Source: Actinomycetota bacterium
GTDB lineage: Bacteria; Actinomycetota; Actinomycetes; S36-B12
Assembly: GCA_009699315.1 (NCBI GenBank)
Contig: WLOK01000001.1
Span: 18,216 to 82,215 of the forward strand
Length of the DNA: 64,000 bases
Direction: 5' to 3'
Below are positions 6,230-42,849 of this stretch, piece by piece. The notes beneath the pieces were generated by a model that was not told where the DNA came from, did no database searches, and saw nothing but the letters and a program-made list of their open reading frames with translations. A program made the translations under genes and the position numbers. Position 1 is the first letter of the stretch, and each line of letters opens with the position of its first letter.

Positions 6230-6799
6230 CTACCGGAGAATCTCGGCCGCCACATCAGCCATGGACTTTCTGCCGTCCATAGCCAGCCGCTGTAGGTGCC
6301 GAAAGGCCTCGGCCTCGGTCATCCCTTGGGCTTGGAGTGCCGCTTTCGCCCGATCGATGAAGGTCCGGGCAGCGAGGCGGCCCTGCAGATCACTGGCTCT
6401 CATCTCGGCGCCTTTGCGCTCAGCCCATCGAGCCCGGGCAATCTCAATGGCGGGGCTGAGATCAGACTGACTAAACGGCTTCACGACGTAGCCCATGACG
6501 CCCACTTCAGCAGCTCGATCGACGAGGGCGCGTTGACTAAACGCCGTCAACATCACCACGGGGGCCACATCGGCCTCTCGAATGCGTTCCGCGGCGGCGA
6601 GTCCATCCATGACGGGCATCTTCATGTCGAGGAGGACCACGTCGGGGCGTAGTTCCAACGCGAGTCGAACCGCCTCGGCGCCGTCGCCAGCCTGCCCCAC
6701 GACGACATAGCCTTCCTCGGCCAGCATTTCGACGAGATCCATGCGGATCAGAGCCTCATCCTCGCCCACGACGACGGTTACTTCATGTTGAGAACCCAC
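6230..6799 (-). CDS. pdtaR: Response regulator with ANTAR RNA-binding output domain (PdtaR-like)
   Basis: 189 aa. The receiver domain shows 'VVVGEDEALIRMDL...DVVLLDMKMP'. The C-terminal ANTAR helix region is 'FIDRAKAALQAQGMTEAEAFRHLQRLAMDGRKSMADVAAEIL'. Confidence 0.85.
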   Translation of the reverse strand: MGSQHEVTVVVGEDEALIRMDLVEMLAEEGYVVVGQAGDGAEAVRLALELRPDVVLLDMKMPVMDGLAAAERIREADVAPVVMLTAFSQRALVDRAAEVGVMGYVVKPFSQSDLSPAIEIARARWAERKGAEMRASDLQGRLAARTFIDRAKAALQAQGMTEAEAFRHLQRLAMDGRKSMADVAAEILR

Positions 6800-6839
6800 A
6801 GCACGACTCTAGTGGCCGACGGGTTAGGCTGGCGCCCGC

Positions 6840-6913
6840 GCCCTGGTAGCCCAACCGGCAGAGGCAGTGGTCTCAAACACCATCCAGTGTGGGTTCAAAT
6901 CCCACCCAGGGCA
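6840..6913 (+). tRNA. tRNA with anticodon CAA (Leu by anticodon) but class I geometry (5-nt variable loop); 74 nt, CCA not encoded
   Basis: Manual cloverleaf. The acceptor stem is GCCCTGG/CCAGGGC and U8 is present. The D arm is GCC../..GGC with GG in the loop. The anticodon stem is GTGGT/ACCAT and the loop is CTCAAAC. The variable loop is CCAGT. The T arm is GTGGG-TTCAAAT-CCCAC and the discriminator is A. I am confident it is a tRNA gene; the isotype is uncertain (see findings). Confidence 0.7.
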
Positions 6914-6938
6914 CTCCTAAGTACCGAGTCCCAGCGCA

Positions 6939-7358
6939 CTAAACGACGGTCGGCTTTATCTCCACAATCCGAGCCAGAAGTCCGTTCACGAAACTTGGCG
7001 ACTCATCCGTAGACAGATTCGACACCAACTCCACCGCTTCGGCAATCGCGACACCATCGGGCACGTCATCTGCCCAGATGATCTCGAACGTCCCGATGCG
7101 CAGTGCCGCACGATCGACTGCCGGCATGCGCTCGATGGTCCATCCCATTGAATATGTGGCAAGCAACTCGTCGATGTGTTCCTGATGAGCCACAACACCT
7201 TCGACAAGAGCCCGAACAAGTGGGTTGAGTTCAGGATCGTGCGTCGCCGCACGCCGAGACTCTTCTTCGCTTAGAGCGACGAGGGGCGCAACGGCCCGAA
7301 GATCTGCTTGGTACAAAATATCCAAGGCGCGTTTGCGGGCCTTGCTACGAGCAGACAC
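6939..7358 (-). CDS. nusB: Transcription antitermination factor NusB
   Basis: 139 aa. 'SARSKARKRALDILYQADL' is a typical NusB N-terminus. It lies directly downstream of efp with no gap. Confidence 0.93.
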   Translation of the reverse strand: MSARSKARKRALDILYQADLRAVAPLVALSEEESRRAATHDPELNPLVRALVEGVVAHQEHIDELLATYSMGWTIERMPAVDRAALRIGTFEIIWADDVPDGVAIAEAVELVSNLSTDESPSFVNGLLARIVEIKPTVV

Positions 7359-42762: not shown

Positions 42763-42849
42763 GTCCGGGTGGCGGAATAGGCAGACGCGCTAGCTTGAGG
42801 TGCTAGTGCCCGAAAGGGCATGGGGGTTCAAGTCCCCCCTCGGACACCA
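42763..42849 (+). tRNA. tRNA-Leu (anticodon GAG), class II, CCA encoded
   Basis: 87 nt. The acceptor stem is GTCCGGG/CTCGGAC. The anticodon stem is CTAGC/GCTAG with loop TTGAGGT. It has a long variable arm (TGCCCGAAAGGGCAT), the T arm GGGGG-TTCAAGT-CCCCC, A73 and CCA. Confidence 0.93.

Follow-up and report, generated by a model that had tools for sequence, protein, structure and literature searches.

At positions 6840–6913, on the forward strand of a 64,000-nucleotide stretch of DNA from an uncultured actinobacterium other than Streptomyces (hereafter the window), lies a gene that pairs the leucine anticodon CAA with a class I tRNA body. How is such a tRNA to be read? A first-pass annotation, which took all bacterial tRNA-Leu to be class II, had offered three options: an unusual leucine isoacceptor, a tRNA charged by another synthetase with reassignment of UUG, or a non-translational tRNA-like gene. 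The premise was wrong, as a class I (type I) tRNA-Leu(CAA) was described in Streptomyces coelicolor in 2019 by Fan, Huang, Ji and Wang (Nucleic Acids Res 2019, PMC6614811). The first option proves to be right, both by homology to this Streptomyces type I family and by the leucine-like scaffold of the tRNA. We are highly confident that the window gene is the organism's copy of the actinobacterial type I, UUG-reading tRNA-Leu(CAA). It is an already known kind of leucine isoacceptor, odd-looking and yet ordinary for Actinobacteria.

Structure of the tRNA gene

The gene is read as GCCCTGG-TA-GCCC-AACCGGCAG-AGGC-A-GTGGT-CTCAAAC-ACCAT-CCAGT-GTGGG-TTCAAAT-CCCAC-CCAGGGC-A and measures 74 nucleotides to the discriminator A73. 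A 7-bp acceptor stem (GCCCUGG/CCAGGGC) is followed by U8 and A9, and by a D arm (6849–6865) with a 3-bp stem and a C13.A22 mismatch that is invariant in the alignment of homologs. The anticodon arm, GUGGU-CUCAAAC-ACCAU, leads into a five-nucleotide variable loop, CCAGU (positions 44–48; 6884–6888), in which U48 forms the Levitt pair with A15, as covariation also indicates. A T arm (GUGGG-UUCAAAU-CCCAC) and the discriminator A complete the molecule.

ARAGORN identifies a tRNA-Leu(caa) at 6840–6914. The Rfam tRNA model RF00005 matches over its full length (model positions 1–71) with 57.2 bits against a gathering score of 29 (E=1.1e-9). Both place the same anticodon loop, CUCAAAC, with CAA at positions 34–36 (6874–6876, forward strand), reading UUG. 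The hand alignment in the first-pass annotation was not off by one, and the covariance model assigns no other anticodon. The cloverleaf proposed there is borne out stem by stem, as are the five-nucleotide variable loop, the 74-nucleotide length and the discriminator A. The 3′ flank reads CTC, so that CCA is not encoded, again as first reported. A single-sequence minimum free energy fold gives an alternative pairing in the anticodon arm (z = −2.85) and lacks the cloverleaf in this region; it is the covariance model, together with covariation, that supports the cloverleaf. The tRNA signal at 6840–6913 is far beyond chance.

The type I tRNA-Leu(CAA) of Streptomyces

S. coelicolor has five tRNA-Leu isoacceptors, of which UAA, GAG, CAG and UAG are type II; the CAA isoacceptor alone is type I, and its variable loop reads A44-C45-A46-G47-C48 (PMC6614811). 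Its single LeuRS leucylates both types in vitro, with kcat/Km values of 6.25 s−1 μM−1 for the type I CAA tRNA and 14.2 s−1 μM−1 for the type II UAA tRNA (PMC6614811). What matters to charging is C74, the pairing of U8 with A14 and a variable loop that is five nucleotides long; the Streptomyces enzyme does not use A73 as an identity element, and recognition of the type I tRNA is conferred by the C-terminal part of the LeuRS leucine-specific domain (PMC6614811). The Streptomyces type I tRNA is not a substrate of E. coli LeuRS (PMC6614811), and acceptance thus depends on the enzyme; SpurLeuRS and EcLeuRS do not charge type I, unlike ScoLeuRS. Knock-out of the CAA gene was attempted and failed, from which the authors inferred that the gene is needed for reading UUG, a codon found 6706 times in the S. 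coelicolor genome (PMC6614811). In earlier work cited in the same paper, a type I body with a UAA anticodon replaced bldA in vivo (PMC6614811).

The window tRNA resembles the S. coelicolor type I tRNA in its CAA anticodon, class I cloverleaf, five-nucleotide loop with C45-A46-G47, U8-A14, G18G19, A73 and single-copy chromosomal gene. All features reported in connection with charging that can be read from the gene, U8-A14, G18G19/U55C56 and the five-nucleotide variable loop, are present. Unlike the Streptomyces copies, which have G15-C48, the window copy has A15-U48 and a D loop that is one nucleotide longer. The S. coelicolor gene was compared through its published variable loop, and percent identities were taken from other Streptomyces copies: those with the exact published ACAGC loop lie, like the window gene, beside pdtaR, and are 76–78% identical to the window tRNA.

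Homologs across Actinomycetota

Genomes representing one per species (GTDB) were scanned with the pattern CTCAAA-N7-CAG-N4-GGTTCRANNCC, which returned at least 120 loci. At least 118 of these hold a tRNA-Leu(caa) of 73–75 nucleotides (to A73) according to ARAGORN, which labels every actinobacterial copy tRNA-Leu, and 91 of the sequences are distinct. One further match, in Alicyclobacillus (locus L118), is a chance occurrence of the pattern and not a tRNA, and another (L067) holds the 3′ half of a tRNA only. Among the matches listed, the sources are almost all Actinomycetota and include Streptomyces, Kitasatospora, Mycobacterium, Bifidobacterium, Nocardioides, Cellulomonas, Micromonospora, Pseudonocardia, Thermobifida, Nanopelagicales, Nitriliruptorales and Ilumatobacteraceae. 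The window tRNA aligns with Streptomyces, Kitasatospora, Mycobacterium and Bifidobacterium copies at 72–95% identity, and a copy in a Nocardioides MAG is 95% identical to it.

The genomic position is likewise shared. Among the matches listed, a PdtaR homolog adjoins the tRNA in 103 of 118 loci, Streptomyces included, and 90 of the 103 show the divergent arrangement of the window. Genes for polA and a thioesterase follow beyond pdtaR in several of the matches listed; nusB and efp lie downstream in eight, and pepQ and/or aroQ come next in most of those eight. Whether the same gene is routinely found in relatives and already annotated as a standard isoacceptor had been posed at the outset: the first part holds for at least 118 loci, 103 of them beside pdtaR, and annotation as tRNA-Leu holds for the GenBank phage homologs described below. 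In the 2019 paper the type I tRNA is a rare feature of some Streptomyces; by the present scans it is spread across Actinomycetota. Literature searches for type I tRNA-Leu in the wider Actinobacteria, or for class I tRNA-Leu in phages, returned only the 2019 paper and unrelated work. That bacterial tRNA-Leu are always class II is an unsafe rule, and a screen that flags short leucine tRNAs will be triggered by most Actinomycetota genomes and by many phages.

Evidence of selection on tRNA function

The 91 distinct class I tRNA-Leu(CAA) sequences from the genome scan were assembled in an alignment, A1. Standard pairs are formed in 99.0% of its stem cells, and 18 of 20 pairs show compensatory change on both sides, so that the conservation and compensatory stem changes sought by the first-pass annotation are present. 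None of 500 shuffles reached the observed values, and partners slid out of register pair at 38–53%. At the Levitt pair 15–48, 79 sequences have A-U and the other 12 have G-C, with no mismatch. U8, C13, A14, G18, G19, A22 and A73 are invariant, and of these U8, A14, G18, G19 and A73 are not imposed by the search pattern. The pattern does fix the anticodon loop, C45-A46-G47 and part of the T arm, where conservation is not evidence; the two innermost T-stem pairs never vary for this reason. The combination of A15/U48 and A73 had been singled out earlier as matching identity elements of E. coli LeuRS. A15/U48 stands as structure, since the pair covaries; A73 is no identity element where the Streptomyces enzyme is concerned. 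Everything that a tRNA needs on the ribosome is kept: an anticodon loop of seven nucleotides that includes U33 and A37, the T loop, G18G19, A73 and the Levitt pair.

Leucine identity and decoding of UUG

A second tRNA in the window, at 42763–42849, is confirmed by ARAGORN and Rfam as the class II tRNA-Leu(GAG) with a 15-nucleotide variable arm and encoded CCA that had been reported. With class II tRNA-Leu the window CAA tRNA has in common a 3-bp D stem, the N13.A22 mismatch, the AAYNGGCAG loop and the D-loop length, the D arms being GCCC-AACCGGCAG-AGGC in the CAA tRNA and GCGG-AAUAGGCAG-ACGC in the GAG tRNA. Also in common are A73, U8-A14, an R15-Y48 Levitt pair and G18G19, and class II tRNA-Leu often have the same T arm, GUGGGUUCGAAUCCCAC. 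Elsewhere, class II tRNA-Leu(CAA) genes beside pdtaR have both the anticodon and the genomic slot of the class I gene. The differences lie in the variable region, five nucleotides in the window tRNA in place of the 13–16 of class II, and in the acceptor and D stems, which are systematically distinct (GCCCC.. and GCCC/AGGC in class I; GCCG.. and GCGG/ACGC in class II).

Comparison with a crude isotype panel gives class II tRNA-Leu(CAA) as the nearest tRNA outside the family, with up to 59 of 74 positions identical. When the crude panel includes a set of 24 phage tRNAs, leucine tRNAs have 54–59 identical positions, the best non-leucine tRNA (Val) has 53 and tRNA-Met has 39–42. Position 3–70 is C-G and not G-U, which excludes AlaRS and an alanine identity. 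SerRS requires a long variable arm, to which the short arm here is unsuited, and most other synthetases read anticodon bases that are absent from CAA. A leuS gene was sought in the 64-kb window and is absent from it; the 973-residue open reading frame encodes aconitase and the 911-residue one AlaRS.

Viral contigs were scanned with a pattern that leaves the anticodon free (GGCAGAG-N8-YTNNNRN-N7-AGY-N3-GGTTCRANTCC; at least 120 loci). Among the matches listed, all 121 of 121 carry leucine anticodons (TAA 87, CAA 17, TAG 11, CAG 3, GAG 2 and AAG 1), spanning both leucine codon boxes. A scaffold that always comes with leucine anticodons is what an anticodon-independent LeuRS identity predicts.

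Codon usage in the window was examined in seven conserved genes. UUG aligns with leucine in 65% of cells, compared with 65% for CUG and 69% for CUC, and the control codons AUC, GUG, AUG and UUC do so in 12–19%. Opposite UUG, relatives mostly carry CTG or CTC, the codons of class II tRNAs. UUG makes up about 17% of leucine codons in the tested genes, so a reader for it is needed.

These results bear directly on the reading in which a synthetase other than LeuRS charges the tRNA, or charging is ambiguous, and UUG is reassigned or mistranslated. A model for it exists in the anticodon/body-mismatched tRNA-Pro variants that are reportedly found in Streptomyces, and the class I body, set against the class II substrates of canonical bacterial LeuRS, lends it some appeal, as does the failure of E. 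coli LeuRS to charge the Streptomyces homolog (PMC6614811). Yet that homolog is leucylated by its own LeuRS, and its body with a UAA anticodon rescues bldA (PMC6614811). In the window UUG follows CUG and CUC, with mostly CTG/CTC opposite; the six anticodon types of the viral scaffold are all leucine types among the matches listed; and the 3–70 pair excludes AlaRS, while the short arm and CAA anticodon disfavor SerRS and most other synthetases. Unlike mistranslating tRNAs whose anticodon and body are mismatched, the window tRNA has a leucine-like body, and UUG positions behave as leucine. Reassignment is accordingly very unlikely. The window gene is best regarded as the normal UUG decoder of an actinobacterium, and its annotation should read tRNA-Leu(CAA).

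Genomic neighborhood and expression

The gene lies on the forward strand between pdtaR and nusB, as the first-pass annotation had it and as gene calls confirm. The divergent neighbor (6230–6799, reverse strand) encodes a PdtaR-type response regulator with REC and ANTAR domains (Pfam PF00072 and PF03861, scored on the identical pdtaR gene in locus L121), and nusB occupies 6939–7358 on the reverse strand; beyond nusB follow efp, pepQ, aroQ, aroB and aroK in that order. The efp gene of the window has matches in metagenome assemblies only. Two of these independent assemblies contain the identical 74-mer, with differing flanks. A repeat of the tRNA 3′ half, the marker of an integrated element, was sought within the window and none was found.

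A TANNNT-type hexamer, TAGGCT, at 6825–6830 on the forward strand starts 15 nucleotides upstream of the mature 5′ end, and had been proposed as −10-like. The proposal gains support from relatives, in which TANNNT hexamers start at −21 to −14 in 61 of 116 related loci, as against about 0–3 per position elsewhere. By its position at −15 relative to these hexamers, TAGGCT is a probable promoter element. A consensus scan of 6500–7300 for sigma-70 promoters and intrinsic terminators found nothing. CCA is encoded in just 21 of 118 relatives among the matches listed, which points to post-transcriptional addition of CCA as the rule.

On the reading preferred here, the tRNA would be transcribed from its own promoter just upstream, with TAGGCT at −15 as the −10-like element, and matured by RNase P and 3′ trimming; CCA would be supplied by a CCA-adding enzyme, given that the gene encodes none. 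The organism's LeuRS would then charge it with leucine; the anticodon is not read by LeuRS. If the Streptomyces mechanism applies, the short-arm body would be accepted through U8-A14, the five-nucleotide loop, C74 and the C-terminal part of the leucine-specific domain, and the charged tRNA would decode UUG as leucine in ordinary translation. Leucylation in the window organism is here extrapolated from one mainly in vitro study of Streptomyces.

It is tempting to connect the tRNA with its neighbor. The tRNA's place beside pdtaR is conserved to a striking degree throughout the phylum, and proteins of the PdtaR type bind RNA (Pfam ANTAR), so the gene could be imagined to serve mainly outside translation, as an aminoacyl donor for cell wall or natural product synthesis or as a regulatory RNA tied to PdtaR. 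A search of the literature for a link between PdtaR and tRNA-Leu(CAA) found none. All features for ribosomal use are conserved; the S. coelicolor gene is the only CAA isoacceptor of its genome, resisted deletion and has 6706 UUG codons to read (PMC6614811); and in other lineages the slot holds a normal class II tRNA-Leu(CAA), with which a plain decoding role fits. A mainly non-translational function, the third of the original options, is left without support and is highly improbable, and any side role of this kind would be additional to decoding.

Short-arm leucine tRNAs in phages and other systems

The class I leucine scaffold is widespread in phages. Class I tRNA-Leu genes are found in Corynebacterium phage StAB, Streptomyces phage Wakanda, Lactobacillus phages ATCC 8014-B2 and LP65 and Pseudomonas phage ZC03, and further carriers are a Bacillus phage, IMG/VR contigs and a tRNA array in a Leptospiraceae MAG. 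The phage tRNAs are 76–84% identical to the window tRNA and are annotated as tRNA-Leu in GenBank. Phage and window scaffolds have in common the ..CCAAC(N)GGCAGAG.. segment, a five-nucleotide loop ending in AGY and a GGTTCRAnTCC T arm. In contrast to the window gene, the phage forms carry any leucine anticodon and are grouped with other tRNA genes in clusters on mobile genomes. Firmicutes and Proteobacteria are among their hosts, where charging by the host LeuRS is putative.

Animal mitochondrial type I tRNA-Leu(UUR) is, like the window tRNA, a leucine tRNA with A73 and a short variable loop. Human mitochondrial LeuRS accepts the type I tRNA of Streptomyces for charging; Streptomyces LeuRS does not charge the human mitochondrial tRNA (PMC6614811). 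The mitochondrial tRNA differs from the window tRNA in its weak elbow and AT-rich body, and direct descent is without evidence.

A human gene derived from tRNA-Met also combines a CAA anticodon with a body that lacks the long arm. It arose recently by a single base change and is expressed at a very low level; the window gene is ancient and conserved, has a leucine-like D arm and is dissimilar to tRNA-Met. That the window gene is itself decaying or recently mutated, for instance from an elongator tRNA-Met(CAU) by U36A, can be practically dismissed, for although CAA is one base from CAU and the body is class I like that of tRNA-Met, tRNA-Leu(CAA) is present at 60 of 80 listed pdtaR-anchored loci picked without regard to the tRNA, the gene is identical in independent assemblies while the flanks vary, covariation is strong and the Rfam score high, and tRNA-Met is among the least similar members of the phage panel (39–42 identical positions versus 54–59 for Leu); the conservation at the pdtaR locus and the low similarity to tRNA-Met rule out the U36A origin in particular.

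What is added to the 2019 paper is the phylum-wide spread of the type I tRNA, its fixed position beside pdtaR, the mosaic of class I and class II genes that occupy this one slot and a leucine-specific class I scaffold that is common in viruses. The results are descriptive, from the matches listed, and may be relevant to tRNA identity, to the co-evolution of LeuRS and tRNA and to the function of phage tRNAs.

Class I and class II genes beside pdtaR

Anchoring a metagenome scan on PdtaR (at least 80 loci) removes the bias of the tRNA pattern. Of the 60 tRNA-Leu(CAA) genes that adjoin pdtaR among the 80 loci listed, 38 are class I (73–75 nucleotides) and 22 class II (81–86 nucleotides). The pdtaR-adjacent slot is thus held by class I tRNA-Leu(CAA) in some lineages and by class II in others. 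The class II copies show the usual GCGG/ACGC D stem and a 13–16-nucleotide arm. Class I copies with variable loops other than NCAGN also occur at these anchored loci (AUGUU, UUGUU, GUGUU, AAAGU and AUAGU).

Class I and class II loci interleave on the PdtaR tree. One class II locus and a class I Nocardioides locus have PdtaR proteins that are 92% identical, and the PdtaR of a second class II locus matches its counterpart in a class I Nocardioidaceae locus at 86% identity; to judge by PdtaR similarity, the class II-bearing metagenome loci probably belong to other Micrococcales and Nocardioidaceae. In the 92% pair, which is Nocardioides-like, both flanks are homologous, with 82–86% nucleotide identity. 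The segment between them measures 183 nucleotides with the class I gene and 830 nucleotides with the class II gene and an open reading frame, and the two tRNAs differ in every stem. Deletion of the arm in situ from a local class II gene was considered for this sole pair (L131 and L110) and rejected, the stems differing throughout and the class II locus having some 650 extra bases. The exchange looks like replacement rather than mere loss of the arm.

It is possible, although we hold this only tentatively, that the short-arm tRNA-Leu is an old and distinct lineage, resident in Actinomycetota chromosomes and in many phages, that has been swapped with class II genes more than once at the pdtaR locus, closely related lineages included. 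Phage-borne tRNA genes may in that case have given rise to a core isoacceptor of the chromosome or taken its place, and many hosts would need a LeuRS that tolerates both architectures. At one locus, a class II tRNA-Leu(UAA) and a class I tRNA-Leu(CAA) stand in tandem.

Genomic context of the tRNA-Leu(CAA) gene

The ANTAR response-regulator gene pdtaR directly adjoins the tRNA-Leu(CAA) gene, both in the window (6230-6913) and in most of the genome and metagenome loci compared with it (L001-L120 and L127-L206, respectively). Among the matches listed, pdtaR lies beside tRNA-Leu(CAA) in 103 of 118 genome loci, and tRNA-Leu(CAA) lies beside pdtaR in 60 of the 80 metagenome loci that were anchored on PdtaR. 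The two genes are mostly divergent and spaced by 40-300 nt. Their adjacency is seen from Ilumatobacteraceae through to Bifidobacterium; farther out on either side, the gene content differs between loci. A literature search for a connection between pdtaR and tRNA-Leu(CAA) found no paper.

The pdtaR-adjacent slot is occupied by tRNAs of both architectures. Among the metagenome matches listed (L127-L206), class I tRNA-Leu(CAA) occupies it in 38 loci (for example L134, L153, and L173) and class II tRNA-Leu(CAA) in 22 (for example L131, L141, and L170), and loci of the two kinds are interleaved in the PdtaR tree. The PdtaR proteins of L131 (class II) and the Nocardioides locus L110 (class I) are 92% identical and the flanks are homologous, whereas the tRNAs differ and L131 has an additional ~650 nt that includes an ORF. 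In one metagenome locus (L192:2000-2217), pdtaR adjoins a tandem of two tRNA genes, a tRNA-Leu(TAA) of class II and a tRNA-Leu(CAA) of class I; such a tandem is a possible source for replacement of one tRNA-Leu architecture by the other through an anticodon switch.

On its other side, the window tRNA faces the convergent gene nusB, whose stop codon lies across a spacer of only 25 nt (6914-6938). No hairpin resembling a terminator was detected. Between the window and two metagenome assemblies from otherwise near-identical strains (L121 and L122), both this spacer and the upstream one differ, but the 74-nt tRNA is identical.

Atypical loci and viral homologs

On a Pseudonocardia MAG contig (L067; minus strand, positions 264-350 or so in the reverse complement), the class I tRNA-Leu(CAA) is represented by its 3' half alone, which begins with the anticodon loop, ends at A73, and is fused to unrelated DNA. 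The fragment has the look of an attachment site left behind by an element that uses the class I tRNA-Leu(CAA) gene for integration. No comparable repeat of the tRNA 3' half was found in the window.

Two loci have unexpected taxonomic labels. L059 is labeled as a Brevundimonas MAG, yet is probably a mis-binned contig, given its Cellulomonas-type tRNA and polA-thioesterase-GNAT-pdtaR context. L009, labeled as an Anaerolineae MAG, carries a full member of the class I tRNA-Leu(CAA) family (GCCGAAG..., loop CCAGU), with no detectable pdtaR at the locus; either the contig was mis-binned or this copy lies outside Actinomycetota.

A Leptospiraceae MAG contig (L048:4816-5331) contains a tight array of tRNA-Cys and five short tRNA-Leu genes (74-75 nt; anticodons CAG, CAA, CAG, GAG, and TAA), all five with the class I scaffold. 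Mobile tRNA arrays of a similar kind have been reported in mycobacteria, and a short-loop tRNA-Leu-TAG encoded in a cluster is mentioned in PMC6582537.

Viruses commonly carry the class I tRNA-Leu scaffold (IMG/VR contigs L209-L328; GenBank phages L123-L126 and L207), comprising CCAAC(N)GGCAGAG, a 5-nt loop ending in AGY, and the T arm GGTTCRAnTCC. The anticodon-blind scaffold pattern returned Leu anticodons, predominantly TAA, in 121/121 of the viral matches listed. Hosts of the GenBank phages with these putative tRNA-Leu genes include Lactobacillus, Pseudomonas, and Bacillus.
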